Shown here one piece after another: positions 1,026 to 64,000 of a stretch of DNA of 64,000 nt. The stretch is from a virus (lineage: Duplodnaviria; Caudoviricetes): positions 24,422 to 88,421 of the IMG/VR virus record IMGVR_UViG_2740892201_000001; one strand, 5' to 3'. The notes beneath the pieces are model-generated. The model did no database searches and had not been told where the DNA came from. It was given only the letters and a program-made list of their open reading frames with translations. A program made the position numbers and the translations under genes. Each line of letters starts with the position of its first letter. The first letter of the stretch is position 1.

Positions 1026-1727
1026 ATGGCAATTCTTGATAATGAGCTGACGTTCTCGAACGCTCAGGCGGTCACTGCGACCGCCGTATCAACCAACGTG
1101 GTTGACCTCGGTGTCGACCGCGATATCGGTATCGGTGAGCCGGTTTATCTGGCTGTGCAGGTTGGTGCAGCATTTGCTGGACTGACTTCACTCACCGTTA
1201 CGCTGCAAACCAGCCCGGATAACAGCGCATGGTCAACCCTGTATCAGTCTGCGGCGATCCCCGTAGCCGACCTGACTGCAGGTGCACAGCCAGTTCGTGT
1301 TGTTGTTCCGTCACGCACTGAGCGCTATCTGCGCGTCAACTATACCGTGGCAGGTACCGGCACCGCTGGCACCGTTACAGCATCGCTGCTGCTCGGTCCG
1401 GATGGCTATCGGGCTTACCCGGCTGGCTCTCCGACGCCAGACTTCTCAGCGGTCACTAACGTTTCTGTTACCGGCGTAAGCGTCAGCCCGACGACGGCAA
1501 GCGTGGCTGTAGGTGCGAACGTGACCCTGACAGCCAGCGTGTCGCCTTCTGACGCGAGCAACCCGGCGATTTCTGCAACCTCATCTAACACCGCAGTGGC
1601 AACCGTGACTCGTTCCGGCAATACCATCACGGTGAAAGGTGTTGCAGCAGGCACGGCAACTATCACCGTCACCACCGCAGACGGCGGCCACACTGCGACC
1701 AGCACCATCACGGTTACTGCATCGTAA
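1026..1727 (+). CDS. Capsid cement/decoration protein (Bbp16-like) fused to a C-terminal Ig-like (Big_2) domain
   Basis: N-terminal ~135 aa (QAVTATAVSTNVVDLG...RYLRVNYTVAG) resembles Bbp16. The C-terminus VTGVSVSPTTASVAVG...SSNTAVATV...GTATITVTT is a Big_2 signature. Confidence 0.85.
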   Translation: MAILDNELTFSNAQAVTATAVSTNVVDLGVDRDIGIGEPVYLAVQVGAAFAGLTSLTVTLQTSPDNSAWSTLYQSAAIPVADLTAGAQPVRVVVPSRTERYLRVNYTVAGTGTAGTVTASLLLGPDGYRAYPAGSPTPDFSAVTNVSVTGVSVSPTTASVAVGANVTLTASVSPSDASNPAISATSSNTAVATVTRSGNTITVKGVAAGTATITVTTADGGHTATSTITVTAS

Positions 1728-1745
1728 CTCTGGTGTATCAGACTC

Positions 1746-1768
1746 AGCCCTCTTCGGAGGGCTTTTTT
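1746..1768 (+). terminator. Intrinsic terminator after the capsid genes
   Basis: AGCCCTC-TTCG-GAGGGCT followed by a T run. Confidence 0.85.
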
Positions 1769-1779
1769 AATGGTGAGAT

Positions 1780-2382
1780 ATGACTACCAAGATAATCGTC
1801 ATAAACCGCGCTTTAGTGAAGCTGGGCGAAGAGCGCCTGATGAGCGAGACGGACAACAACAAAGCTTCCAGAACGATCGAGGCGATTTATGACGGTTTGC
1901 TTGAAAGCCTGCTGCGTGACTATCGCTGGGCGTTCTCCATCAGGCGGGCAAAGCTTGCGGCCCTCAGTGATTCTCCAGCTTATGGATACTCGCACCAGTA
2001 TCAGCTTCCCTCTGATTTCCTCCGGATGGATGAGGTGCTTAATAGCGCGCTGATGAGTCCGCTATGTGGTGCTATTGACCAGCTTCGTGATTCACCCTGG
2101 CAGATTGAAGGCCGGAAGATACTGACCGACATCGAGGCCCCGCTGCACCTCCGTTACGGCGCTAAAGTCACAGACCCGTCGCAGTGGGATAGCTCATTCG
2201 CTGAAGCTTTCGCCTGTCTGCTTGCTTATGAGATGTGCGAATCCATCACGCAGTCCTCAACCAAAAAGCAGGCGGCCGGACAGGACTTCGAAACGGCGAT
2301 CAAGGCAGCACGCGCTGCCAGCGCTATTGAGCGCCCCCGCATTAAGCAGCAGGAAACATCCTGGTTAACATCGAGGTTATAA
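1780..2382 (+). CDS. Tail tubular protein A / head-tail adaptor
   Basis: 200 aa; INRALVKLGE...Y.W.F...Y.Y.LP.D.LR pattern; position after the capsid genes. Confidence 0.8.
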   Translation: MTTKIIVINRALVKLGEERLMSETDNNKASRTIEAIYDGLLESLLRDYRWAFSIRRAKLAALSDSPAYGYSHQYQLPSDFLRMDEVLNSALMSPLCGAIDQLRDSPWQIEGRKILTDIEAPLHLRYGAKVTDPSQWDSSFAEAFACLLAYEMCESITQSSTKKQAAGQDFETAIKAARAASAIERPRIKQQETSWLTSRL

Positions 2383-4692
2383 ATGCCATCAGCTTCCCCA
2401 TCACTCAATAGCTTCAATGCCGGTGAGTTTTCCCCGCTGATGATGGGGCAGACCAACTTTGAAAAGTGGTCATCCGGCGTTAAGTCGATGCTGAATTTCA
2501 TCCCTCGCTCTCAGGGTCCTGCAGAGCGCCGCGGCGGCACCTACTTCGTTTCTGAAGTGAAAAACTCAGGACAGCGAGTATGGCTGGCTAAGTTCGAGTT
2601 CAACACTACGCAGGCGTTTATTCTTGAGTTTGGCCCTCAGTACATCCGATTCTATTCCGACCATGGCGTAGCGCTTAACTCAGACGGCGGAACCCTGGAG
2701 GTAGAGACTCCATTTGTCGCTGGCGAACTGACTAACAGTGATGGCGGGTTTGGCCTTTCGATGGTTCAGAGCGGCGATGTCATCTACATCTGCACGCATA
2801 CCGGCAACCTGCCTCCGTACAAACTGTCGCGGGAGTCCAATACAAACTGGACGATTGAGCCTTTCGATTACTCCGGAGCGCACGGACCGTTTCGCGATAT
2901 CAACTCAGACCGCACCATCACAGTTCACACAGACCAGTTCCGCATCTGGTCGGCCAATGGAGCAACGCGCCCGGATGGTACACCTACAACAACCACTCAA
3001 TGCACCATCTCTGCAAACTCAGCCATTTTCGATTCGAGACATGTGGGCGGGCTCTTCTACATTGAATCGAGCACTGATGCCGTAACTGATGGTACCGGCA
3101 AGGGCGGCTATATTCCGGCTTGGGAGGCAGGGACCACATCAACATTTGCCGTAGGCATGTTTTGCAGAAGTGATGGCAAATACTACGAAGATTTGGACGG
3201 TTCGCAGACTGGCGCAACTCAGCCTACGTGGACGGCAGGTGCTCATCGTGACGGGCCATCAAACGCATCACTCTGGCGGTATTCGAACGGCGGCTGGGGA
3301 ATCATTCAGATCACCTCTGTCGTCAGCAGCACACAGGCCGTAGGCAAAATCCTGACAGAGCTTCCTCCGAGCGTTCGTGAGTCAACCGGCAATACTTATA
3401 AATGGGCGTTTGGTGAGTGGTCTCCCAAATACGGCTTCCCAACAAAGGTGGCTTTCTATAAGAACCGCCTCCTGTTCGCGGCTCGTGGCAAGCTGTGGTT
3501 CTCCGTAGCTTCCGACTATGAGAACTTCACCACCATGACGAATGGGTATGAGGTTCAGTCTGACGATGCAATTAACGTTCAGATTGAAGCTGATTCAACC
3601 AACACCATTCAATGGCTGGCGCCCGGTTCATCTCTGTTGGTTGGCACCGCGGGTGGAGAGCATACATGCTCACCTTCAACCACAACGGCTGCATTCGGGC
3701 CTGACAACATTCAGATAACCAAAGAGTCATCCTATGGCTCAAAAGGCGTCAACGCAGAGCAGGTTGGCGCTACGTCAATGTTTGTTCAGCGCGCCGGATG
3801 CAAAGTCAGGGCAGTCCTGTCTGACTTAGAGAGCGGCTCATACAGTACCAGCGACGTGACAATCCTCGCGGAGCACATAACCCGTGCCGGCATTGTCGAT
3901 ATGGCCTGGCAGCAGGAGCCGGACTATGTGCTTTGGGTCGTACTCGCTGATGGCTCGCTGGTCGCAATGACCTACAACGATGAGCAGAAAGTTACCGCGT
4001 GGCATCGTCACGATTTGAATGGCGATGTGGAGGCTGTCTCCTGCATCCCGGACCCTGACGGTATAAGGGATGACCTGTGGGTCGTGGTGAAGCGAATCGT
4101 CAACGGGGAAACAAAGCGCTATGTCGAGTACCTGAGGGCGGCCTGGGACGCCTCTACTGAATCGCTATCAGAAGCGTTCTATGTTGACTGCGGCCTTAGC
4201 TATCGTGGCGAGCCAACCAAAAGCATCTCAGGCCTGTCGCATCTTGAAGGTGAAAAAGTATCAGTGGTCACTGACGGAGCGGTGCATACAGAGGCTGTTG
4301 TTACCGGTGGTGGTATCTCCCTTGAAACATCGGCATCAGTCGTTCACGTAGGCCTGCCATATCGTTCTGAGCTTGTCACCCTGCCACTGGAGGCAGGCGG
4401 CACGGCCGGCACCTCGCAGGGTAAAACCAAGCGTATCAGCAAGCTGACACTCAGATTCGTTAATACGCTGGGTGGAAAGGCAGGCCAGTTGGGCGGCAAA
4501 TATCTGGACACCATAGAGAGCCGCGACTACTCAGACCTCATGGATAACCCGCCTGCTGCCTTTACTGATGACCGGGATATCGATTTCGCCGGAGGTTATG
4601 ACACTCAGGGGTGCATCAGGGTGGTTCAGGACCAGCCCTTGCCGATGACACTGGTTGCTATCTATCCACGCTCATGGACAACTGGCGAATGA
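2383..4692 (+). CDS. Tail tubular protein B / nozzle
   Basis: 769 aa starting SFNAGEFSP...RRGGT; typical podoviral nozzle. Confidence 0.85.
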   Translation: MPSASPSLNSFNAGEFSPLMMGQTNFEKWSSGVKSMLNFIPRSQGPAERRGGTYFVSEVKNSGQRVWLAKFEFNTTQAFILEFGPQYIRFYSDHGVALNSDGGTLEVETPFVAGELTNSDGGFGLSMVQSGDVIYICTHTGNLPPYKLSRESNTNWTIEPFDYSGAHGPFRDINSDRTITVHTDQFRIWSANGATRPDGTPTTTTQCTISANSAIFDSRHVGGLFYIESSTDAVTDGTGKGGYIPAWEAGTTSTFAVGMFCRSDGKYYEDLDGSQTGATQPTWTAGAHRDGPSNASLWRYSNGGWGIIQITSVVSSTQAVGKILTELPPSVRESTGNTYKWAFGEWSPKYGFPTKVAFYKNRLLFAARGKLWFSVASDYENFTTMTNGYEVQSDDAINVQIEADSTNTIQWLAPGSSLLVGTAGGEHTCSPSTTTAAFGPDNIQITKESSYGSKGVNAEQVGATSMFVQRAGCKVRAVLSDLESGSYSTSDVTILAEHITRAGIVDMAWQQEPDYVLWVVLADGSLVAMTYNDEQKVTAWHRHDLNGDVEAVSCIPDPDGIRDDLWVVVKRIVNGETKRYVEYLRAAWDASTESLSEAFYVDCGLSYRGEPTKSISGLSHLEGEKVSVVTDGAVHTEAVVTGGGISLETSASVVHVGLPYRSELVTLPLEAGGTAGTSQGKTKRISKLTLRFVNTLGGKAGQLGGKYLDTIESRDYSDLMDNPPAAFTDDRDIDFAGGYDTQGCIRVVQDQPLPMTLVAIYPRSWTTGE

Positions 4693-18956: not shown

Positions 18957-19037
18957 GTTGACACCTGAAAATTTTGATACGGGATTTTGTCATTGAGATA
19001 GGTGATGATCAAGGAATCGATCATTTGCGTGAGGCAA

Positions 19038-19102
19038 TAAAAAAGCCCGGCGACCGGGCAATGACTCAACCGCGCCTCTCTGAGCAGGCTACGGGGTGGG
19101 TT
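19038..19102 (-). ncRNA. Putative sRNA unit A1 (sigmaS-like promoter)
   Basis: CTACCCT -10 at 19108-19114; terminator GCCCGG-TCG-CCGGGC-T6; homolog at 60652 with compensatory changes. Confidence 0.65.
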
Positions 19103-19146
19103 TTGTCAGGGTAGGTCATCATCACAACAGGAGCCAGGCGGGAGGC

Positions 19147-19300
19147 AAAAAATTACCCACCCCCGAGGCGGGTGGCGGGCATAATTTGTGGTGGAGCCAG
19201 TGACACTCTTTTGAGGCATCTCATGATTGTGACGAGGTTTAAGGCGAGCCAGCCATGCGCCTCTTCAGCCAGCGGTAGGAGCGCGGGCCTGTACACAACA
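19147..19300 (-). ncRNA. Putative ~150-nt sRNA unit B1
   Basis: TTGTAA-16-TACCAT promoter (19328-19333, 19306-19311); GC hairpin plus U tract; 100 bp identical to 61131-61230. Confidence 0.55.
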
Positions 19301-19364
19301 GTCATATGGTAGGGGGCTGAGCTGGTATTACAAGCGTAAGCGGTAACTAATTTGGGGGATGCGC

Positions 19365-19431
19365 AAAAAAAAGCCCACCAGAGGCGGGCAACCATAAATT
19401 TATCAACACATATCAGTGAGGAGAACCTCAC
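19365..19431 (-). ncRNA. Putative sigma28-dependent sRNA unit C1
   Basis: TAAAGTTT-N11-GGCGATAC (19463-19437); 5' hairpin GUGAGG/CCUCAC; AU-rich linker; terminator with U8. Confidence 0.7.
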
Positions 19432-19512
19432 AGCAAGTATCGCCAACCCGAAGAAAAACTTTAGCCTTACGTCTCGTTTTTAATGGTTATCTACTCACCG
19501 ATTTCAGAGCGC

Positions 19513-19583
19513 AAAAAAGCCCGCGTTACGCAGGCATCAATTGGGACAAAAAGGAAAAATCTCAGTATCAGCATCCGCTGACA
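19513..19583 (-). ncRNA. Putative sRNA unit D1
   Basis: TATGGT -10 at 19589-19594; 5' hairpin UGUCAGC/GCUGAUA; pyrimidine-rich linker; terminator; near-identical copy at 61607. Confidence 0.6.
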
Positions 19584-19771
19584 GTCGCACCATACAGGGT
19601 TCCGGGCCAATAGATAGTGATGAATCTGGCAATAGCGAAACGTGAGCAAGTTATGTATTTTCGTCATGCAAAACTATGCAGCGCTCGGGCTATAGAGCAT
19701 AAATTCAGCACCAGCTGCAGCTTTACAATTTTGCTACTCGCTTCGCCTTGATCAAATCCACCGATCGATAT

Positions 19772-19791
19772 TACTGTTTATTCATACAGTA
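19772..19791 (+). promoter_or_regulatory. LexA (SOS) box
   Basis: TACTGTTTATTCATACAGTA = CTG-N10-CAG, downstream of TTGATC -35. Confidence 0.85.
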
Positions 19792-19812
19792 TTTATCAGA
19801 GGAGGATTACTG

Positions 19813-20052
19813 ATGGCGCGAGACTACGAGATAAAGCCTGCATTCGTACAGGCGATCACATTGGACCGACTAGGGCGTCAGATAGTGACGACCAGCGCAT
19901 TCCAGGCGAAGCTGGAGGCCGTAAACCATCACTGGACGCTGCAGCAGTGCAACCAGTGGATACGACGCGAACAGAATATGTTCATGGAGCTGGCGACAGA
20001 AAACGGTGACAACCGCACCTACGCCCTGCGTAATATGGGATATGTGAGGTAG
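19813..20052 (+). CDS. SOS-regulated small protein (function unknown)
   Basis: GGAGGA RBS; 79 aa; near-identical copy at 61908. Confidence 0.8.
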   Translation: MARDYEIKPAFVQAITLDRLGRQIVTTSAFQAKLEAVNHHWTLQQCNQWIRREQNMFMELATENGDNRTYALRNMGYVR

Positions 20053-20054
20053 TC

Positions 20055-20377
20055 ATGGGATTTCAGTCACCGGCGCAGGATTACGTCGAGAGCCGTCTCG
20101 ATCTCAACAGGCTGTTTGCACCTCACCCAAACCACATGCTCCGGATAGAGACGCCAGGCGGATTCGCTCTGATAGACCGATCGCTTCAGGCGAAGCCGGG
20201 CGACACGGTCGCATTCCAGTTCGACGATTACCCGCAACTGGGGAAACTATTCAGCACAGGCATCATCACTCAGGATGGAGAGACGTTAGAAGGGAATGGG
20301 CTTGAGGGGGTCGTGGTGCTTGGGAAGGTGACTGCCGAGGTTCTGACTCTATACGAGCCTTACCGACCGACAATCTG
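20055..20377 (+). CDS. UmuD'-like (HumD-type) protein lacking the protease motif
   Basis: Starts MGFQSPAQDYVE like cleaved UmuD'; no GDSM catalytic motif. Confidence 0.75.
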
Positions 20378-20389
20378 AGGCGAAAGGGG

Positions 20390-23856: not shown

Positions 23857-24516
23857 TCACTCCACCTCCACGCGCTTAAACTCAATGACCCACACCCACG
23901 GGTTAGCCAGCCAGCTGTCATCGCCGTAGATAGACTTCCATAACGTAACGAAGGAACCGCGTGCGCTCAGCTGGTGCTGAGTCCAGCCGGGCTGATAATG
24001 ACGCCAGAAACCGCCCCGTAACTGCTCCACGCCTTCCGCGCGTGCATCGACTTCACTGATATCGTACATCCGCTCCACACGAACGCCGGTAATCTCCAGC
24101 GTTATGCGGGAAGCCCAGCGCGGCATGTGGATGGATGGGCGCCAGCGGCCTTCTTTCGGCCAATCGTCTGGAATAGTTGCGCGGTAAGCCATGTCGTGGC
24201 TGTATTGGTCAATGTTGTATCTTGCCCACGTCTCACGCACCCACAAGCGATCACCAATTGCACCAAAAGGACAGGTGTAGCCCTCATCATCGCTGGCCAC
24301 ACCAAAAACTTTTTTCTTGGCTGGCTGAAGGTAGCCATCTTTATCGACCATGCCGGGCGTATACCAGCGCGCGTTAAAGTCCGTTTTCAGTTCCATATTC
24401 ATCGGACAGAAATCGGCAGAAGGCTGCACCCGCATGATCCGGCGCGTCTGAGTCTTTCTGCCGTCGAGAACTGCACGAACCATGTCGGCGTTAAAGATGA
24501 CTGGACGCTCTTTCAT
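23857..24516 (-). CDS. ASCH/PUA-like phage protein
   Basis: FN..MVRA.LDGRKTQTRR...GDRLWVRETW...W.PSIHMPRWASRI...W.ANPWVWVIEF. Confidence 0.8.
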   Translation of the reverse strand: MKERPVIFNADMVRAVLDGRKTQTRRIMRVQPSADFCPMNMELKTDFNARWYTPGMVDKDGYLQPAKKKVFGVASDDEGYTCPFGAIGDRLWVRETWARYNIDQYSHDMAYRATIPDDWPKEGRWRPSIHMPRWASRITLEITGVRVERMYDISEVDARAEGVEQLRGGFWRHYQPGWTQHQLSARGSFVTLWKSIYGDDSWLANPWVWVIEFKRVEVE

Positions 24517-27148: not shown

Positions 27149-27151
27149 GCA

Positions 27152-27222
27152 TAAAAAAGCCCGCGCTAGACGGGCATAAACTCGTTCAATTGGGGCAAAC
27201 CATCTGTCAGCATAAGCTGACG
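27152..27222 (-). ncRNA. Putative sRNA unit I (immunity region)
   Basis: TATCAT -10; 5' hairpin GUCAGC-UUAU-GCUGAC; terminator GCCCG..CGGGC-U6; shares the hairpin and CCAAUUGA with unit D. Confidence 0.6.
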
Positions 27223-27303
27223 ATAATAATGATACTTACGATGTGAAAATTAGGAAATAGATGCTCCACAATTTGTTAAGCACCGCAAATTTTGTGCGAA
27301 AAC

Positions 27304-27378
27304 AAAAAGGCCCGCCGGACGCGGGCTAGCAGTATCAAAGCATTCAAAAGAGAAGTTTTGAGCATCAGTTGAGCTCAT
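27304..27378 (-). ncRNA. Putative sigma28-dependent sRNA unit J (immunity region)
   Basis: TAAAGATT-N11-GACGATAA (27410-27384); 5' hairpin; terminator GCCCGC..GCGGGC plus U tract. Confidence 0.7.
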
Positions 27379-27407
27379 TCAGATTATCGTCAAATACTGA
27401 GAAATCT

Positions 27408-28121
27408 TTATTGAAATGTCTCTTCAGGCCATTGAGCTTTCACCACCTTACCTATGATCCGGCAACTATGATCACAGTCTAAAATCCGATAAGCAGGATT
27501 GAGCGGCACAAGATAGCTTACACCCGCATCCTTCTCATACTTTTTGAAAGTCACTTCTGAGTCAGCATTCGCAGACGCCACGCAGAAGTCGCCAGTCTCA
27601 ACCGGTTCTGCCGGGTCGATGAGGATCAGCATACCCTCTGGGAAACTTGGACGAACGCCCTGCGGCGCGGTCATTGAGTGACCCTTCACTTCAAGCCAGA
27701 ACGCTTTATCGCTGGCTTTCTTAGTTGTAGGGACCCATGCCTTTGCATCTCTGGAGGTAAAACTACCCACCTCAGAAAAATCACCAGCCTGGACATAAGT
27801 GAACAGGGGGTATTCATAGTGATTTGACCTAATGTTTTCTTCACCAATCGACTGATACATGTCAGCGATCTCAGCAGCAATTTTAGGACTAAATTCTCCA
27901 ACACTTACCTTCAAGAATTTGGCTAATGCTGAGGCATTGCTGGGATTCAGAGCATTTACTCCATTCAGCAAAGATGCGACAGCTGATTGACCTACGCCCA
28001 GTGCGTCCGCCACAGACTCTTGGGAAATACCCAACTCAGCTTTTTTGCGCTCATAGATTGATTTCAGTCTCTGCGCGTCTTCGATTTGCTCGTTAGTGAG
28101 CGGCTTTTTCTTTGCATTCAT
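27408..28121 (-). CDS. cI: Lambda-type CI repressor (HTH plus S24 autoprotease)
   Basis: KKKPLT.EQ.EDA.RLK.IYE.KK.ELG.SQESVAD...GQS; VQAG cleavage site; FWLEV.G.SMTAP.G..PSFP; TFKK. Confidence 0.95.
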
Positions 28122-35090: not shown

Positions 35091-35232
35091 GTAAACATCC
35101 CTGCAAGGGATGGTGAAAAGATTATCCACACTGAGGGATAGAAAAATTAACCCTGTTGCCGACGGGCAAGGCAGTTACCGCTTTAGCGTCAGGGTTTCTA
35201 AATGCCCGACTCTGCACTAAGATGACTTCACT

Positions 35233-35332
35233 GCGGTGAATCCCATCTAAGCGATGGGGCGTGATGGCAAATGTTATGCGGAACGCGAGCCTGAAGCCAT
35301 AACAGGGCTCACCGGGAGGCACCCGGCACCGC
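35233..35332 (+). ncRNA. Structured RNA element (sRNA-Xcc1-like motif), late leader
   Basis: GCGGTGAAT...CACCGGGAGGCACCCGGCACCGC; 25 nt identical to the copy at 26267-26291. Confidence 0.55.
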
Positions 35333-35484
35333 AGACCATCCAATTTTCTAAATTCAAAGGCTCACTTCGGTGGGCCTTTTCGTTTTTGCGCACGCCAATC
35401 AGCCTCCACACACATTTTGACGCCGTGGCGTTGCGCAATTTCCTTCTGACTACCGACAGCACCTGCCAATTAACGGAGGTGAGG

Positions 35485-57800: not shown

Positions 57801-58024
57801 AGGCATTCATAGGTGATGCGACTATCACAAGCGCAATGATCGCGGCATATATTGAGTCTACGAATTACGTTGCAGGAGCTACAGGATGGAGGCTCAGCAA
57901 AGACGGTACCTTTGAAAATAATGGTTATGAGCCCGGCAATGGTCGTATGGTGCAAACCAACAACCAAATATCAGTATATGACGGTAATGGTGTTCTGCGC
58001 GTGAGAATGGGGAAACTCAGCTGA
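54815..58024 (+). CDS. Central tail tip protein J
   Basis: G.KGGGG..HTPVE..D.L.S; YPNTAL; NPAW..YD; LRVRMG.L; FN3 segments. Confidence 0.95.
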   Translation: MRLLEGAVIQGSKGGGGSAHTPVEQADDLLSIAKLKMLLAISEGEIQGDLTAQQIYLNDTQLANEDGTYNFTGVVWDWRRGTQDQTYIQGMPEVDNELSVGVAVTQSVAWTRQFTNLTLDAVRIKVSLPVQYQYKDNGDMVGTVTQYAIDLSTDGGSWVTVVDGRFNGKTTSEYQRDHRIDLPKATSGWSIRVRRITADSTSSKLINAFKVFSFAEVIDSKLRYPNTALLYIEVDASQFSGQAPKVTCKPKGRLVRVPTTYDPVSRTYAGTWQGDFKFAYTDNPAWIFYDLVLDKIFGMGTRVDATMIDKWELYSISQYCDQMVSDGAGGTEPRFTCNVFIQSQQDAYTVLKDIAAIFRGITFWGNSQIFVNADVPQVDSDGNVDVDFVYHAANVIDGLFTYAGGSYKNRYSSCQVSWSDPINHYSDTVEGVYDSDLVQRYDVREMSLTAIGCTSQSEAHRRGRWAILSNAKDGTVSFGVGLDGYIPIPAEIIGVADPFRSGKQNGGRISSVNGLRITLDRAVDYAAGDRLVVNLPDGTAQTRTIGSISADKKTVSVNTSFRTTPVTGAVWAIDSDNLAIQYFRVTSVAGNDDGTFTITGVQHDPNKYRYIDDGVRIEPAPITVTPISVLKAPANIKISEVSFVEQGLSVSSMQVTWDRVEGAISYVAQWRKDKGDWINVAVTSAQGFSIQGIYTGVYDVRVRAVNAAEVSSPWGYADSTSLSGKAGKPGTPVNLRATDNVVWAIDVTWAFPDGSGDTSYTEIQVATTADGQNPQFLAYVPYPGVSYQHGPMPAGVRRWYRARLVDRIGNTGDWTKFVEGASSVDATALLGDITEQVLKTDAGKQLIAKVDTNIDAMLQNALNLDATVDHQMAEAGKNRADILTVKQTIATNDQAYAQKFEQVQATVDQNTAAVQQTSTALADTNGKLSAQYSVKVAVDSNGRQYAAGMGIGVENSPAGMQTQVLFLADRFAVMSQVGATPKTFFAIQNGQTIINQAFIGDATITSAMIAAYIESTNYVAGATGWRLSKDGTFENNGYEPGNGRMVQTNNQISVYDGNGVLRVRMGKLS

Positions 58025-58326
58025 TGGCATATGGTTTTGGAACCTGGGACGCCAATAGTGTCGATAATAACACTGGGCTCGTTAAAATTAATGCGCTCGG
58101 CGTTATGTCGATTGATGCTACCAGTAATTACAATCAGTCATTCGCACTGCCTACCGGTTATTCTCTCGATTATCTTTTTCAGGCCAGTGGCGACAGGAAT
58201 GGCAATGGCAGAAAGAAGATTTACGTCAGCGGCTCTAACGTCTTAGTGAGTCAGGTATCAGGCTCAGACTATTCTGTGGGAACTTTTCCTAACGTTCCGG
58301 GAAACATACTGGTATTCGTGAGGTGA
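58024..58326 (+). CDS. Small tail-tip protein
   Basis: MAYG..TWDA; coupled to J. Confidence 0.7.
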   Translation: MAYGFGTWDANSVDNNTGLVKINALGVMSIDATSNYNQSFALPTGYSLDYLFQASGDRNGNGRKKIYVSGSNVLVSQVSGSDYSVGTFPNVPGNILVFVR

Positions 58327-58327
58327 T

Positions 58328-59008
58328 ATGTCCTATGGAGCAATGCTGACAGACTCAGCAGGAGTACCATTTTACATTGGCGACACAATGCCATTAACCC
58401 TTCTTGAAAAGCGCGTGCTTAATGTGCCTTCTGTGTCCGGAAGCGGCACTGTCATTAACCTGTTTAATAATGACAATGTCATCAGGTTTGTGTTTGTTAA
58501 CAGTAATGGCGCTCAAGGGAATCGTTCAAGCACGTGTGAGGCCCTAGAATTATCCGGAGGGGTTTGGGGTTTACGCTGTGCTGGCGAGGCAAGAACAGTT
58601 AACGTTTACATTTTTGGCTATCAGTTCCAGCCTGTTCCCGCCTGGGGGATTCAAATCAATGACTCTCAGGGGCGATGTATACTGACAAACGAAACCAAAG
58701 TATTGCGTGATGTCCAGAAGCTGGGAGATGAGGGCTCGGATTCAGGATCGGGGTTAAACGCTAATTTCTCTATCTCAGGGGAGTGGGCCGTTGCACCGGC
58801 TTATACCGGGAATTACTCAGGAACAGTGAGTCAGGGTGGGCAGGTTTATCCGGTTGTTGCCCAGTATGCGAGCAGTGCAAGGTTCAATGGCAGCACGACA
58901 CAGATCACCAGTGGATATATCGGCAACCTCAATACCGGGGGCGGAGGTACAGGTACATTAACTAACTACCGAAACCGTCTTGTAGCGGTTAACGTTCAGA
59001 GGTATTAA
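58328..59008 (+). CDS. Tail-associated protein
   Basis: WGIQI.D.QG.CILTNETKVL motif; position after J. Confidence 0.7.
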   Translation: MSYGAMLTDSAGVPFYIGDTMPLTLLEKRVLNVPSVSGSGTVINLFNNDNVIRFVFVNSNGAQGNRSSTCEALELSGGVWGLRCAGEARTVNVYIFGYQFQPVPAWGIQINDSQGRCILTNETKVLRDVQKLGDEGSDSGSGLNANFSISGEWAVAPAYTGNYSGTVSQGGQVYPVVAQYASSARFNGSTTQITSGYIGNLNTGGGGTGTLTNYRNRLVAVNVQRY

Positions 59009-59094
59009 TAAAATCGATCCTTGAAATCCATCAATTTAATTGATGAGTTGAGGCTTTAAAGGTATAAAGCATCAAACTAAACAAGGATGATTAA

Positions 59095-59319
59095 ATGATG
59101 AAGATTCTTTTGCTGATGGCTCTTACCTCACTGGCCGGATGTCAGGCTCTACCTCCTGTGAAATGCACGGCGATTGCCAGAATTGGCGGGCAGGATGTCA
59201 ATGTGCCAATCTACGATGTTAAAACTGAGGCGAACCAGACTAAATATTTCGCAGGCAATCCCTTCGGATGGAAGTGGGTATCAAAGTCAAACTTCACCGA
59301 GAGCACCTGCCAGAAATAG
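59095..59319 (+). CDS. cor: Cor superinfection-exclusion lipoprotein
   Basis: Lipobox LAGC; C.A.A.IGGQ...V.IY.V.....QT.Y.AG.PF.W.WV...NF...TC. Confidence 0.85.
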   Translation: MMKILLLMALTSLAGCQALPPVKCTAIARIGGQDVNVPIYDVKTEANQTKYFAGNPFGWKWVSKSNFTESTCQK

Positions 59320-59381
59320 TAAATAACTCAAATCAATAAACCCGGCCACCGTGCCGGGTTTTTTATTGCCCGGAGAAAGCT

Positions 59382-60653
59382 ATGCCAGCAGGCACTATCG
59401 CATTAACGAATAACTCAACGGCTGTGACAGGCTCAGGAACATCATTTACAGCTGAGCTTAAAGCGAACGACTTCATCGTTGCTATAGTAGGTGGTGTCAC
59501 CTATACGCTCGGAGTGCAGTCGGTGAACTCGGCTACCGGCGTGACACTGACTACAGCATATAACGGCCCGACCGCATCAGGTATTGCGTGGACAGCTGTA
59601 CCTAATGCGGCCCTTGTCGGGATTACTGCGCAGGTAGCGGCTGATGTAGCCAGGGCTATTCGCGGGCTTAATCTTGATAAAGCTAACTGGCAGCAGATTT
59701 TCAGCGGCACCGGAAACGTGACAGTAACGCTTCCAGACGGCAGCCAGTACACAGGTCCGGCATGGGGTGGCTTAATTAAGCGAGATGGCTCTGTTGCCAT
59801 GACAGCTGCACTGACAACGCCAGCAATTGAGCTGACAGCTGCAACCCCCTTTATAGATTTTCATTATAACAATTCGACAGCCGATTATACGGCAAGGATC
59901 ATTCATACCGAAGCGCAGGCGATTGAAGTTAGCGCTGGTTCAGGAAATATATCTTTTCGCATCAATGGCGGTTTACGCGTCGGTGGTGCGTCTTATTCAG
60001 GAGGCATTAACTTATATCGAGGTAATGGCGATGCGAATGCGTTGTGGGGGTTAAACGCTTCAGATGGAAATCTAAATATTGCCAGGGGGACATCGACCGG
60101 AGGCATTATAACGATGGCTGATAGCATGCTGGATCAAGTGCGAGGGATAAGAGGAAAACAAGGTGCTTCCGGAGTTTATCAACCTAATACCTGGCAGTTT
60201 TACTGGAATTCTTCAGCCCAGCTTGAGGCATGGGTGGATACCAGTAAGGTCGGTAACGTTACGCTATCAAGTACATCAGATAAAGGGCTGAAGAAAGATA
60301 TCACCTACCGTGAAGACGCGAGTGAGGCTCTTGCGGAAGTTCTTAAGTGGCGCCCAGCTGATTTTAAAATGAAGGCTCGTGGCATTATTCCGGAGACAGC
60401 AGAACAGTTGGGTTTCATTGCTAATGACCTGGTTAAGGTATCTCCTGAATGTGTCAGCGGGAAAGGATTGCCGGATGATTATGATATTGAGGCCGATCCC
60501 AATAACGACACGGCATATTACCTTAACCACATCCCGATGATTGCTAAGCTGGCTCAGGCGCTACAGGCCCAGCAGAAAATCATCGACGCACAGTCCGAGA
60601 TTATTAAGGCAATGGGAGTCCGGTTGAAAGATCTTGACGGCTTGGATGGATAA
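59382..60653 (+). CDS. Side tail fiber with C-terminal S74 chaperone
   Basis: GTI.LTNNS..V.GSGT.F; P.IDFH....ADY..RI; TSD..LKK.I...GFIA.DL. Confidence 0.88.
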   Translation: MPAGTIALTNNSTAVTGSGTSFTAELKANDFIVAIVGGVTYTLGVQSVNSATGVTLTTAYNGPTASGIAWTAVPNAALVGITAQVAADVARAIRGLNLDKANWQQIFSGTGNVTVTLPDGSQYTGPAWGGLIKRDGSVAMTAALTTPAIELTAATPFIDFHYNNSTADYTARIIHTEAQAIEVSAGSGNISFRINGGLRVGGASYSGGINLYRGNGDANALWGLNASDGNLNIARGTSTGGIITMADSMLDQVRGIRGKQGASGVYQPNTWQFYWNSSAQLEAWVDTSKVGNVTLSSTSDKGLKKDITYREDASEALAEVLKWRPADFKMKARGIIPETAEQLGFIANDLVKVSPECVSGKGLPDDYDIEADPNNDTAYYLNHIPMIAKLAQALQAQQKIIDAQSEIIKAMGVRLKDLDGLDG

Positions 60654-60716
60654 AAAAGCCCGGCGACCGGGCAAGGTATGTTCCGCTCTCGTCTCAGCGA
60701 GTTTACGGGGTGGGTA
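60652..60716 (-). ncRNA. Putative sRNA unit A2 (sigmaS-like promoter)
   Basis: CTACGCT -10 at 60722-60728; same 5' ACCCACCCCGUA and terminator as A1. Confidence 0.65.
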
Positions 60717-60760
60717 TTGTCAGCGTAGGTTACTGTTTCAGCCAGAGCCAAGCGGCGGGC

Positions 60761-60839
60761 AAAAAAAGCCCGCAAAGCGCGGGCATAAAATTCGAGCGTT
60801 AGAAACTTCTTGTACGCAACACAGCTGCTGTGTGTTACC
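60761..60839 (-). ncRNA. Putative sRNA unit E2
   Basis: TATCAT -10 at 60845-60850; 5' hairpin GUAACACA/UGUGUUGC; terminator GCCCGC..GCGGGC-U7. Confidence 0.55.
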
Positions 60840-60922
60840 CATATATGATAACCCATAGTAATTATTTGTTTGTTAAGAAAGCGTAAATCCTATCAATAGG
60901 TGGAACTAACCTTTCGGGAAGC

Positions 60923-60999
60923 AAAAAAAACCGCTGTCCGGAACAGGGCAGCGGGAAAGGTGTACCCAGCTATTATTATGGTACCAGGGTAGATACCAG
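60923..60999 (-). ncRNA. Putative sRNA unit F2
   Basis: TATAAT -10 at 61005-61010; 5' hairpin, AUAAUAAUA tract, CCUUUCCC, terminator with U8. Confidence 0.6.
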
Positions 61000-61072
61000 C
61001 GGCAATTATATGCCATAAGTCAGATCACGCCTGTTTTTTTAACAAATAATTTACAGCAATAACATTGACCTG

Positions 61073-61226
61073 AAAAAAATGCCTGCCCCCGAGGCGGGTG
61101 GCAGGCATAAGTCGTGGTTGGGCTATTGATACTCTTTTGAGGCATCTCATGATTGTGACGAGGTTTAAGGCGAGCCAGCCATGCGCCTCTTCAGCCAGCG
61201 GTAGGAGCGCGGGCCTGTACACAACA
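61073..61226 (-). ncRNA. Putative ~150-nt sRNA unit B2
   Basis: TTGTCA-16-TACCAT promoter; homolog of B1; terminator with U7. Confidence 0.55.
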
Positions 61227-61290
61227 GTCACATGGTAGGGGAGTGAGCTAGTATGACAAGCGTAAGCGGGAAGTATTTTCAGGAGTTCAG

Positions 61291-61365
61291 AAAAATAAGC
61301 CCGCGTCAAGCGGGCTGACTCAAGCAGGGGTCACCAATAATCAGAGTTGAGAGCACTACTCTCAA
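61291..61365 (-). ncRNA. Putative sigma28-dependent sRNA unit G2
   Basis: TAAAGAAC-N11-ACCGATAC (61397-61371); 5' hairpin UUGAGAG/CUCUCAA; terminator AGCCCGC/GCGGGCU. Confidence 0.7.
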
Positions 61366-61445
61366 AAATGGTATCGGTCAGCCGGCCAGGTTCTTTAGGG
61401 TTGATTTCATCAGAGGGGGGGTTAACCGAACAGCACCGCGTGTGC

Positions 61446-61526
61446 AAAAAAAAGCCCGCATCTCACGGGCAAGTAACAGCGTATGTCTTTTGTTTTCTCA
61501 CTTCAGGTGAGGAGCTAAGCTCCACC
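61446..61526 (-). ncRNA. Putative sigma28-dependent sRNA unit H2
   Basis: TAAAGGTT-N11-GCCGTTAA (61557-61531); 5' hairpin; A-rich linker; terminator with U8. Confidence 0.7.
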
Positions 61527-61606
61527 ATTGTTAACGGCTCATTGTCGAAAACCTTTAGTAAAGTCAGCACTATTTTGAATAACCGAAGCGCTCAAAGCTT
61601 AAAGCC

Positions 61607-61678
61607 AAAAAAGCCCGCGTTACGCAGGCATCAATTGGTACAAAAAAGGAAAAATCTCAGTATCAGCATTCGCTGACA
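61607..61678 (-). ncRNA. Putative sRNA unit D2
   Basis: Near-identical to D1; TATGGT -10 at 61684-61689. Confidence 0.6.
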
Positions 61679-61866
61679 GGCGCACCATACAGTGTTCCTG
61701 GCCATTAGATAGTGATGAATATGGCAATAGTGAAACATGAGCACGTTATGTATGTTCGCCATGCAAAACTATGCAGCGCCCGGGCTATAGAGCATAAATT
61801 CAGCACCATCCGCAGCTTTACAATTTTGCTACTCGTTTCGCCTTGATCAAATCCACTGTTCGATAT

Positions 61867-61886
61867 TACTGTTTATCCATACAGTA
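61867..61886 (+). promoter_or_regulatory. LexA (SOS) box
   Basis: TACTGTTTATCCATACAGTA. Confidence 0.85.
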
Positions 61887-61907
61887 TTCATCGGAGGAGG
61901 ATTACTG

Positions 61908-62147
61908 ATGGCGCGAGACTACGAGATAAAGCCTGCATTCGTACAGGCGATAACGCTGGACCGGCTGGGGCGGCAGATAGTAACAACCAGCGCATTTCAG
62001 GCGAAGCTGGAGGCCGCAAACCATCACTGGACGCTGCATCAGTGCAACCAGTGGATACGTCGCGAACAGAATATGTTCATGGAACTGGCGACAGAGAACG
62101 GTGACAACCGCACCTACGCCCTGCGTAATATGGGATATGTGAGGTAG
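61908..62147 (+). CDS. SOS-regulated small protein, second copy
   Basis: Differs from 19813-20052 at only 2 aa, with several synonymous changes. Confidence 0.8.
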   Translation: MARDYEIKPAFVQAITLDRLGRQIVTTSAFQAKLEAANHHWTLHQCNQWIRREQNMFMELATENGDNRTYALRNMGYVR

Positions 62148-62149
62148 TC

Positions 62150-62473
62150 ATGGGATTTCAGTCACCGGCGCAGGATTACGTCGAGAGCCGTCTCGACCTC
62201 AACAGGCTGTTTGCTCCTCACCCGGACCATATGATCCGCATAGAAACGCCAGGTGGATTCGCTCTTATCGACCGATCGCTGCAGGCTCGCCCGGGCGACA
62301 CGGTCGCATTCCAGTTCGACGACTATCCGCAGCTGGGTAAATTGTTCAGTACGGGCATCATCACTCAGGATGGTGAGACGTTAGAAGGGAATGCGCTGGA
62401 GGGGATCGTGGTGTTGGGAAAGGTGACGACTGAGTTTGAATCGGCCTATGAAACTTACAGTGCCATTATTTGA
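62150..62473 (+). CDS. UmuD'-like protein, second copy
   Basis: MGFQSPAQDYVE start; diverges from the first copy in the last ~12 aa. Confidence 0.75.
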   Translation: MGFQSPAQDYVESRLDLNRLFAPHPDHMIRIETPGGFALIDRSLQARPGDTVAFQFDDYPQLGKLFSTGIITQDGETLEGNALEGIVVLGKVTTEFESAYETYSAII

Positions 62474-62574
62474 AGCAAGAGCAATCTGCTTTTTGCCGCA
62501 TTACATGCATCTATAGACACTCTGATAATCCGTCCGGAAGTTTATAATTATAAAACAAGCTCTTATAATAATGA

Positions 62575-62967
62575 CTACGTAAACATTTCGAGAGTAGGAA
62601 GCGTGAAGGGTGGGTGTGGTGACATATGAACTACTCTCACTACACCAAATTCATGGCGTGTGTAATGAAGCACGAACATGGAAGTTCTATCTCCAAATTT
62701 CGACTCCTCATCATAATGATGAATACCAATATGGTAATGCCACAAGCAGTGTTTGTTGACAAACCTAGCTTTGCTAACAAATTCAGGATCGTCATGGTCA
62801 ATGTCGTCTGAAAATTTGTTTCTTCCTTCAAGCCCGTCATAGCCATTCTTCATAAGATGCAGGATAAACGCACTTATTTTACGGCGATTTTTAGGAGGGA
62901 AACCCTGATAACGGGTCTTGAAGTGGTTAGTCAGCTTAGCGTCAACAACTACAGGCTCATGATCCAT
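62575..62967 (-). CDS. Putative RelE/YafO-like toxin
   Basis: 130 aa; F...Y..F....RKI..FI N-terminus; LWHYHIG and HPPF motifs; overlaps the upstream 81-aa ORF. Confidence 0.5.
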   Translation of the reverse strand: MDHEPVVVDAKLTNHFKTRYQGFPPKNRRKISAFILHLMKNGYDGLEGRNKFSDDIDHDDPEFVSKARFVNKHCLWHYHIGIHHYDEESKFGDRTSMFVLHYTRHEFGVVRVVHMSPHPPFTLPTLEMFT

Positions 62968-63194
62968 TCATCAATCTCATCAACAGTTTGCAGATGAGAA
63001 GGTATGGTGATATCACCAGAAGCCAAAGACGCGCTTATCTCATCCATAGGATAATTTCTAAAAGAATCACATCTAACGAAAGAAGTATGCTCGATGCTAC
63101 GGACTTTGTTGCTTCTGAAATCAACTGCTTCAATAGAGCTATGCACAGCAGTTGTAGAAAAAGTTGATACGAAACACGCGACTAAAGAAGTCAT
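62949..63194 (-). CDS. Putative antitoxin-like 81-aa protein
   Basis: AAGGGG RBS; acidic C-terminus (TVDEIDEWIMSL); coupled to the downstream ORF. Confidence 0.45.
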   Translation of the reverse strand: MTSLVACFVSTFSTTAVHSSIEAVDFRSNKVRSIEHTSFVRCDSFRNYPMDEISASLASGDITIPSHLQTVDEIDEWIMSL

Positions 63195-63197
63195 AAG

Positions 63198-63494
63198 TTA
63201 CCCCTTAAGATCTGGTGTATCTTTCAAGTTTGAAACGAGTGCATCGCGAAGAGCCACAGCTCTATCGTGAGACATTGTTACTGATGCAACCTTTTTAATC
63301 ACTACCTGTGATGCCACTGGCACACCGTTTTCGTCGGCATGCGATGTCACTCTGTTAGTAAGAAATGAGAGGTTAACGTAATGATTGTCATCGATGCGAT
63401 ACTCTGTCACGCCTGCAATTTCAGCATAAACATCTGTAAAATTAGCGTCGTTCTCAATGAGAGTTAACTTCGCTTCAGGTTCAATGTGCGACAT
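63198..63494 (-). CDS. 98-aa hypothetical protein (DUF3467-like pattern)
   Basis: YA......V.L.F...VASVTMS...A..L...L...L beta-plus-helix pattern. Confidence 0.5.
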   Translation of the reverse strand: MSHIEPEAKLTLIENDANFTDVYAEIAGVTEYRIDDNHYVNLSFLTNRVTSHADENGVPVASQVVIKKVASVTMSHDRAVALRDALVSNLKDTPDLKG

Positions 63495-63623
63495 GATGAA
63501 TTTTGTTTTCCATAAAGTGGATGAGAATCATACTCCAACTATGCTCCAAAGCAAGACAATCGAAACGAAATGATAAAGCCTTGAAACCCACATAAACAAA
63601 CTATAGGTCATTCGCAAAGAATG

Positions 63624-63650
63624 ATATCGGTAAACTTCTCAAAAACTTTA
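63624..63650 (-). promoter_or_regulatory. sigma28 promoter upstream of the three-gene moron
   Basis: TAAAGTTT-N11-ACCGATAT. Confidence 0.65.
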
Positions 63651-63755
63651 TAGCAAAGGTAAAGGTTTTAAAAATTTGCGTACATATATGAGTACATATG
63701 TAAGTGAATTTTATGATTTAAATTACTGTTTATATTGGATTAGATTCTTGTTTTT

Positions 63756-63779
63756 TTATATCCATTTAACTAAGGGGAC
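63756..63779 (+). repeat. att core of prophage 2 (displaced original tRNA 5' fragment)
   Basis: Exact 24-bp repeat of 21777-21800; host-like TATACT -10 and GC-rich discriminator at 63780-63795 on the minus strand. Confidence 0.92.
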
Positions 63780-64000
63780 AGCGGCACGCAGTATAGCGAA
63801 ACAGGCGATGAGATTCATCAGGTCGCCGCGCGTTTGCTCATTACGTCAGCAATGTCGCTGTTCAGCCTCTCTTTTGAGACCACTTTTTTCATGCAGGGGC
63901 CAGATAACACGTGCAGCGCAAATCCTTCTGCGCTGCACTTTTTTACCTGACGACAGTTATTCAGCACCTTCCTCTTTTTCTCCGCGCTCTTCACGCTCAC

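Follow-up and report, generated by a model that had tools for sequence, protein, structure and literature searches.

Is the 1.25-kb gap between two plus-strand gene blocks of a Pantoea prophage an array of small RNA (sRNA) genes, and how are its units kept, exchanged and controlled? The gap lies in a 64,000 nt stretch of IMG/VR record IMGVR_UViG_2740892201_000001 (positions 24,422–88,421; called the window below), which belongs to an 88-kb provirus record. Relatives of the neighbouring 107 amino acid (aa) protein are encoded at 12 genome loci, nine of them in Pantoea. The original prediction divided the minus strand of the gap into seven back-to-back units of what it called prophage 2 (A2, E2, F2, B2, G2, H2 and D2), each with its own promoter and terminator; the array region as delimited here is the minus strand of 60650–61813. 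We put at roughly two in three the probability that this is a Pantoea prophage site that collects independent small-RNA genes, whose products are made separately and act in trans. Transcription, chaperone binding, trans action and all targets are things we infer.

Seven terminator-bounded units and their exchange

All seven of the minus-strand hairpin-terminator units predicted within about 1 kb were present in terminator and fold scans. The fold-based scan recovered every array terminator (−9.5 to −23.4 kcal/mol), and a terminator-finding tool listed five of the seven; it gave 13 terminator-like sites in 58000–64000, compared with 5.6 ± 2.4 in shuffled sequences. A strict scan of the whole window returned 18 minus-strand terminators, five of which fall in the array's 972 nt, where about 0.27 are expected (Poisson P ~1e-5; expectation and P are our own arithmetic from the strict-scan counts). 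Every unit ends in a Rho-independent terminator with a U tract of about six or more, the stems being followed by 6–8 T; one tract reads TTATTTTT. On the plus strand the T/A run precedes the hairpins and does not follow them, so the hairpins are one-way signals. The D2 terminator overlaps the stop codon of the tail-fibre gene at one border of the array.

The sRNA-like architecture that had been proposed was also seen: all seven predicted bodies fold as a 5′ hairpin, a mostly open linker and a terminator hairpin with its U tract, with z-scores of −1.7 to −2.7 (A2, −2.74). The further claim that a −10 element lies upstream of each body stood at the level of the motif, a hexamer being found 6–8 nt upstream, and conservation backs the promoters of D, B, G and H in the array, and of C in neighbouring prophage 1. 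Only two sites inside the array were flagged by the sigma70 scan of the tool. A sigma70-like match (TTGAGA-17-GATTAT) is also present inside F2.

Related loci were used to follow the units individually. Seventy-two loci around homologues of the 107-aa gene (L005–L076) were compared unit by unit; each was cut at its minus-strand terminators and the pieces were clustered, giving 138 units in 59 families. Prophage 1 holds a partial second copy of the array, A1-C1-B1-D1, at 19037–19650, adjoining a second copy of the SOS gene pair (the gene downstream of this array we take to be gtrA). Among the 72 loci, A, B and C recur in L017, L020 and L021, and G and H in L020 and L021, while D recurs in dozens; D alone is the commonest arrangement. 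The order of units is A-C-B-D in prophage 1 and L017, A-C-B-G-H-D in L020 (its C unit was overlooked by the terminator finder and recovered by unit comparison and alignment) and A-E-F-B-G-H-D in the array described here. Other loci hold 2–9 units. In L011 (P. latae) the arrangement is D-x-x-H-D-x-H-D-x, with nine terminators in 2.4 kb (1336–3759), no open reading frame (ORF) longer than 76 aa, the H-D pair present twice and D three times; the H-D pair also recurs in L020 and L021. L073 (1620–4000) has seven units with seven minus-strand terminators in about 2.4 kb, and hardly any ORF.

Arrays of four and of seven units, and also D alone (L005, L018), are found next to alleles of the 79-aa protein that share 96–100% identity, indicating that the turnover is recent. 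When A-type loci are compared with those carrying D alone, the operon and the LexA box are homologous, and homology continues as far as TTGTAAAGC, where it breaks off. E2 and F2 together replace C; the exchanged block, bounded by terminators, begins where the A terminator ends and reaches 11 nt into the B unit, and cassette borders in general lie no more than about 12 nt from a terminator T tract. Gain and loss by the unit, as the original prediction expected, was thus seen across related prophages, and the units behave as modular cassettes. A shared border motif, CCGCTT(ACGCTT)G, was considered as a general recombination site and rejected: at borders it is limited to B, two other families and array-embedded D, and it was found in 13 of the 59 families, with many occurrences inside terminators.

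The individual cassettes differ in how widely they are shared. A2 is 91–94% identical to A1 and to the copies in L017, L020 and L021. B2 is 89–96% identical to B1 and the copies in L017 and L020, and 74% identical to a copy on a Pantoea chromosome (L083, genome G446), in which the −35 and long stretches of the body are retained; the consensus fold of B has 42 pairs, three with compensatory changes. A sigma32-type promoter for B was dropped, as its CCCC −10 is missing from the 74%-identical copy. G2 is 78% identical to its counterparts in L020/L021, with TATAAT and terminator conserved, and the seven instances of H (five distinct) keep TATCAT, the upstream TTTACGC and the hairpin. E2 and F2 had no homologue in the 72 related loci or in 75 Pantoea species genomes (best six candidates per genome scored), and E2 had none in phage records or E. 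coli genomes. In a 401-genome family sample (best two candidates per genome scored), D and short terminator-sized pieces were the only matches, with no E2 or F2. Exact 18-/19-mers of E2 and F2 in IMG/VR gave three chance matches in unrelated AT-rich phages and otherwise 0 matches.

Two further promoter-hairpin-terminator units, I and J, lie at 27151–27410 (minus strand), after a repressor-like gene. Unit I (27151–27301, minus strand) is a paralogue of cassette A, and has the 5′ hairpin, CCAATTGA and the terminator in common with it. The FliA-type promoter of unit J, TAAAGATT-N11-GACGATAA on the minus strand, begins at the preceding stop codon.

The D family and FliA-type promoters

The D family was found at 47 places, represented by 44 distinct sequences, and is present in 27 of the 75 Pantoea species genomes, in up to three copies. 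Its alignment has a −35 of TTGGCn, an 18 nt spacer and a −10 of TAnnnT (CTAnnCT in most copies); 7 nt further on is the nearly invariant 5′ end, ACCCACCCCG, which is followed by a short hairpin and a variable linker. The terminator comes in two length variants, both perfectly paired (GCCCGG/CCGGGC and GCCCCG/CGGGGC), and this one-base difference is why the RNAalifold consensus for D is poor. In the hairpin, 87.5% of cells are paired and four of the nine pairs have changed on both sides (compensatory changes), as counted on a structure that was named by the analyst from the same sequences and is favoured by that choice. In 500 shuffles neither the share of paired cells nor the covariation score was equalled, and offsetting the partner by 1–3 columns left pairing at 28–43%. 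The most diverged allele is D2, where CUCG/CGAG has taken the place of GCCU/AGGC in the inner stem and still pairs (fold z −2.38). In 28 of the 44 distinct copies, 144–156 nt separate D from the 79-aa start codon, a spacing also seen with 79-aa proteins of only about 40% identity. The −10 CTAnnCT would fit the sigmaS-like promoter class named in the original prediction. D is a good candidate for a new RNA family.

The C family, represented by C1 in prophage 1, has sigma28 boxes that are unchanged in all four copies while the 11 nt spacer between them varies, and its hairpin shows a compensatory change from GAGG/CCTC to GAGT/ACTC. As aligned here, D, B and C are conserved at the RNA level.

Two promoters of the array had been assigned to sigma28 (FliA), and at the level of the motif this assignment held. 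E2 and F2 both match the FliA-type promoter TAAAG(TTT)-N11-(GC)CGATAA, at the right distance from the predicted transcript start. The pattern TAAAG-N16-CGWTA occurs six times in the window, where 0.15 occurrences are expected (40-fold), and 16 times in 68 distinct related loci, compared with 1.9 ± 1.3 in shuffled sequences. Two Pantoea host genomes contain 35 and 31 matches, while the reversed control gives 8 and 11; by our own arithmetic, the window is about 13 times as dense in matches as the host genomes. Host matches precede fliC, flgM and five chemoreceptor-type genes, so that seven of ten downstream ORFs, the ten having been chosen by eye, encode flagellin, FlgM or chemoreceptor-type proteins. 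Because it marks fliC, flgM and chemoreceptor genes in the host, the pattern is taken to be a FliA-type promoter signature in Pantoea. A precedent for phage genes under this sigma factor is flxA, a FliA-dependent gene in a cryptic prophage of E. coli.

Other occurrences of the motif lie outside the array. A FliA-type promoter, TAAAGTTT-N11-ACCGATAT, at 63625–63650 (minus strand) precedes a three-ORF moron operon on the same strand (98, 81 and 130 aa, from 63494 down to 62575), of which only the 130-aa protein matches a PHROG. In several related loci, FliA-like motifs are also present downstream of the SOS gene pair. The sixth match in the window (61927–61952, plus strand) is inside the 79-aa ORF, is found also in L017 and L018, and could be either a chance occurrence or an internal promoter for the UmuD-like gene.

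A different sequence is shared by promoters of three otherwise unrelated families (B, F2 and F5; L033, L039, L011 and L074), which have CCGCTTACGCTTG at the −35 position (61254–61275 in the window). Array-embedded copies of D carry CCGCTTGGCT. The two sequences, CCGCTTACGCTTG and CCGCTTGGCT, may represent a common promoter module or a regulator site.

Weighing the readings of the array

If the array is a collection of sRNA genes, then each cassette at this site, adjoining the LexA-box operon for the 79-aa and UmuD-like proteins, would comprise a promoter, a body of about 60–150 nt and a strong Rho-independent terminator (6–8 U), the body being made up of a 5′ hairpin and an exposed stretch peculiar to that cassette. 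The seven RNAs would be made separately in the lysogen and would pair in trans with host or phage RNAs, in the manner of Hfq-type sRNAs or sRNA sponges. The predicted promoter inputs are FliA for E2 and F2, a stationary-phase type (CTAnnCT) for D, and sigma70-like for A, B, G and H. Gain, loss and swapping of whole cassettes probably result from recombination between terminators that resemble one another (GCCCGC/GCGGGC-T(n)).

A number of results weigh against this interpretation. E2 and F2 are singletons, backed by nothing beyond their own sequences, and the −10 of E2 is CGTTA, not CGATA. The FliA pattern was written after three of its six matches in the window had been seen, the other three being independent. 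Promoters of A, G and H were called from the −10 hexamer alone, and the sigma70 scan of the region was at chance overall (10 found, 9.6 expected). Two raw-read runs of RNA immunoprecipitation sequencing carrying the same species label (X22 and X24) have 0 reads of the stretch and are uninformative; run X17 covers the array flanks only. The sole RNA-library record, from a plant metagenome (X20), is one contig of 1,123 nt that aligns with 60650–61666 and consists of A, 157 other letters, B, 85 other letters and the D terminator. It ends 11 nt inside the predicted A RNA and spans four terminators; at best it gives a hint, since it could come from DNA carry-over.

Searches for RNA partners and known families were likewise unsupportive. 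Duplexes between D and the mRNA of the neighbouring operon had a mean z of 0.10 over 22 loci. Complements of the D 5′ end were at chance in the window (12 found, 11.4 expected) and in four host genomes, where several of the matches are D genes themselves. When 11 units were paired with seven flagellar or chemotaxis translation-start regions, the best z among the 77 combinations was −3.2, and the results were inconsistent. No Rfam family matched the array at its gathering score, the best sub-threshold scores being 21.2 bits for STnc410 and 17.2 bits for isrK (gathering score 50 in both cases), and H2 was rejected as an isrK on this basis. The prophage 1 array and units I and J had no Rfam match at gathering or permissive thresholds.

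That some units are mRNAs for very small proteins (micropeptide morons) we regard as very improbable. The original prediction saw no credible ORF in the array, and this was confirmed, in that no conserved protein-coding frame was found among the 13 that could be tested. ORFs of at least 30 aa read through the terminator hairpins, and the three longest (94, 100 and 109 aa) matched no Pfam family. Sixteen array ORFs were compared, three of them in E2/F2 without a homologue, and 13 with one. Several frames of 23–44 aa do exist, and a few stay open in near-identical relatives; five of the 13 remain intact, one being a 44-aa plus-strand frame and the other four being short and each comparable with no more than one or two near-identical homologues. 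However, in eight of the 13, one homologue or more lacks the start or has acquired a frameshift or stop, and the best-preserved frame checked, that of 44 aa, shows 7–8 nonsynonymous and 2–3 synonymous codon changes and is without a Shine-Dalgarno sequence. The ATGs of the small frames in B2 are absent from the 74%-identical copy L083, and the D body has no start codon.

Two other explanations were considered. The array might be a stack of terminators with decayed moron remnants, in which the hairpins shield the tail-fibre gene and the SOS operon against antisense or read-through transcription and the sequence between them has no RNA function. It is convergent on the tail-fibre gene, with its last terminator over that gene's stop codon, E2 and F2 are without relatives, most promoter calls are weak and no transcript was seen. 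Nevertheless, this is unlikely: a single terminator would suffice to insulate, D has kept its promoter, 5′ end and compensated hairpin over 44 distinct copies, the promoters and bodies of B and C are also kept, and the FliA boxes, a motif that is 40-fold enriched, are correctly spaced from hairpin-terminator bodies. Alternatively D, and perhaps the array, could be tied to the LexA operon as an antitoxin- or antisense-like RNA that restrains its product. The SOS-linked type I toxin-antitoxin loci tisB/istR-1 and dinQ/agrAB have such a divergent sRNA, and share with this locus a small RNA gene at a fixed, short distance from a LexA-box promoter; the operon here carries a LexA box, D is divergent from it at 144–156 nt in the 28 copies mentioned above, and D is better conserved than the 79-aa protein. 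We consider this tie quite improbable. D lacks complementarity to the 5′ region of the operon in the 22 loci examined, it is still kept where arrays have moved it 0.7–1.4 kb away, and the neighbouring proteins, a phrog_3893 member and a UmuD-like protein, are not short hydrophobic membrane toxins.

A more far-reaching version of the sRNA-collection reading can be put forward only tentatively. It sees an integron-like site, anchored by D beside the SOS operon, at which self-contained sRNA cassettes, each with promoter, seed and terminator, are captured, shuffled and lost. Different sigma factors of the host would read them: E2, F2, C and J would depend on FliA, D on a stationary-phase type, and the rest on sigma70. 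The set of RNAs made by a lysogen might then differ with the state of the host (swimming, stationary or growing). FliA promoters might also drive protein morons of these phages, which would make the flagellar regulon a general entry for prophage cargo in Pantoea.

Prophage sRNAs rewire host regulation in pathogenic E. coli, and have been described there as lone genes or as small sets belonging to one family. What is inherited as a unit in the prophages compared here appears to be the cassette, and arrays of up to nine unrelated cassettes turn over between near-identical phages. Pantoea is a plant- and insect-associated genus, and some of the cassettes in its prophages seem to be tied into the flagellar regulon. 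On the sRNA-collection reading, if true, the birth and exchange of new sRNAs could be studied in a tractable system. D, present in roughly one in three Pantoea species genomes, would be a widespread new RNA family whose conserved, C-rich 5′ end offers a starting point in the search for its target, and phage-directed post-transcriptional control would be linked to the motility of the host in a way that experiments can test.

Known prophage RNAs, feature coordinates and neighbouring genes

The nearest published relatives in organisation are the EcOnc01-03 RNAs (AgvB/AsxR) of enterohaemorrhagic E. coli (EHEC) O157 (Tree et al. 2014, PMC4104026). They belong to a class of unusually short prophage sRNAs, which lie convergent at a moron site behind PR′ and form related groups; AgvB is an anti-sRNA. 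As in Pantoea, they are very short, with a variable 5′ part and a Rho-independent terminator, are found in moron regions of lambdoid prophages, convergent on phage genes, and form groups, related without being identical, whose positions in the prophage are conserved. They differ in their site, which is downstream of PR′ and not between a tail fibre and an SOS operon, and in that Hfq binding and sponge action have been demonstrated, whereas the Pantoea array is known from sequence alone and has seven unrelated cassettes in a row. Although Rfam holds AgvB (RF02702) and AsxR (RF02703), according to the preprint doi 10.64898/2026.05.13.724894, the array matched no Rfam family, and blastn (11-nt words) of the whole array against 5,426 complete E. 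coli genomes gave no match. The likeness to AgvB/AsxR proposed in the original prediction, which had called for an Infernal-type Rfam check, is therefore one of architecture and does not extend to sequence. Among phage records, only the end of the array query that contains the 79-aa gene was matched, in two records.

Pas sRNAs of enteropathogenic E. coli (EPEC) and EHEC prophages adjoin phage structural genes, and their copy number has changed by repeated acquisition (doi 10.64898/2026.05.13.724894). PasB (EcOnc22-24) and other Pas RNAs resemble the array in lying beside the tail genes of lambdoid prophages, with copy number and content that vary between strains by horizontal acquisition. The differences are the host, Pantoea, and the absence of any array match in the E. 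coli genomes, a search that covered the genomes and not the Pas sequences as such. Sigma28-dependent sRNAs of E. coli derive from the untranslated regions of flagellar genes (eLife 2023, PMC10578931). The type of promoter is the one predicted for E2, F2, C1 and unit J, but the latter are free-standing prophage cassettes without similarity to host DNA, and their FliA dependence is predicted from the motif.

The literature searched yielded no description of an sRNA array in a prophage of Pantoea or Erwinia, nor of prophage sRNAs driven by sigma28. The main text of a study of Hfq in P. ananatis (PMC6749038), in the portion available, never mentions phage, and a D-like RNA could be in its supplementary sRNA lists. 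The statement in the original prediction that it knew of no description of such a multi-sigma array has to be tempered, since prophage sRNA clusters are already in print (PMC4104026). Three features set the present array apart: it combines seven unrelated families and not copies of one, whole cassettes are exchanged at a site whose place next to an SOS operon is fixed, and some of the cassettes have FliA promoters.

Table 1. Positions of the array cassettes, their predicted RNAs and adjoining features in the window.
Feature	Position	Strand	Details
Cassette A2	61606–61813	−	About 125 nt of cassette-specific upstream DNA; −10-like TATGGT, 61684–61689
A2 predicted RNA, ~70 nt	61677 to 61607	−	5′ hairpin GTCAGC-N4-GCTGA, 61663–61677; conserved CCAATTGA, 61631–61638
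Cassette E2	61446–61605	−	FliA-type boxes TAAAGGTT, 61550–61557, and GCCGTTAA, 61531–61538, 11 nt apart
E2 predicted RNA, ~78 nt	61524 to 61447	−	
Cassette F2	61291–61445	−	FliA-type boxes TAAAGAAC, 61390–61397, and ACCGATAC, 61371–61378, 11 nt apart
F2 predicted RNA, ~73 nt	61364 to 61292	−	5′ hairpin, 61349–61363; fold z −2.30
Cassette B2	61073–61290	−	−35 TTGTCA, 61254–61259; −10 TACCAT, 61232–61237; site flagged by sigma70 scan
B2 predicted RNA, ~150 nt	~61225 to 61074	−	
Cassette G2	60923–61072	−	Perfect TATAAT, 61005–61010
G2 predicted RNA, ~78 nt	61001 to 60924	−	
Cassette H2	60761–60922	−	Conserved upstream TTTACGC, 60881–60887; −10-like TATCAT, 60845–60850
H2 predicted RNA, ~77 nt	60838 to 60762	−	5′ hairpin, 60819–60833
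Cassette D2	60650–60760	−	−35 TTGGCT, 60746–60751; −10 CTACGCT, 60722–60728
D2 predicted RNA, ~62 nt	~60715 to 60652	−	5′ CCCACCCCG, 60706–60714; internal hairpin
Seven terminator stems	61613–61629 (A2), 61454–61470 (E2), 61298–61316 (F2), 61079–61108 (B2), 60931–60954 (G2), 60768–60784 (H2), 60658–60672 (D2)	−	
Six FliA-pattern sites	E2; F2; C1; unit J, 27385–27410; 63625–63650; inside the 79-aa ORF		
LexA (SOS) box	61867–61886		TACTGT-N8-ACAGTA; over the promoter of the divergent 79-aa/107-aa operon; fixed border of the cassette site
79-aa protein	61908–62147	+	phrog_3893
107-aa UmuD-like protein	62150–62473	+	phrog_3469
Tail-fibre gene	59382–60653	+	Peptidase_S74 chaperone domain; convergent with the array, one border

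Both prophages carry the LexA-box operon (61867–62473 and 19772–20378), and the sequence CTGT-N8-ACAG occurs only twice in the window, at 61869–61884 and 19774–19789, each time just upstream of the 79-aa gene. The operon travels together with D between unrelated phage types. Neither of its two proteins belongs to a Pfam family. The 107-aa protein presumably starts near the point where cleaved UmuD′ begins, seems to be without the ASGDSM serine motif, and could be an SOS-induced decoy or antirepressor.

Elsewhere in the window, the Rfam family STnc100, a prophage sRNA related to PasD (Zhu, Shabalina & Storz 2026 preprint, doi 10.64898/2026.05.13.724894), is matched over its full length at 35205–35388 (plus strand), with 87 bits for a gathering score of 47.

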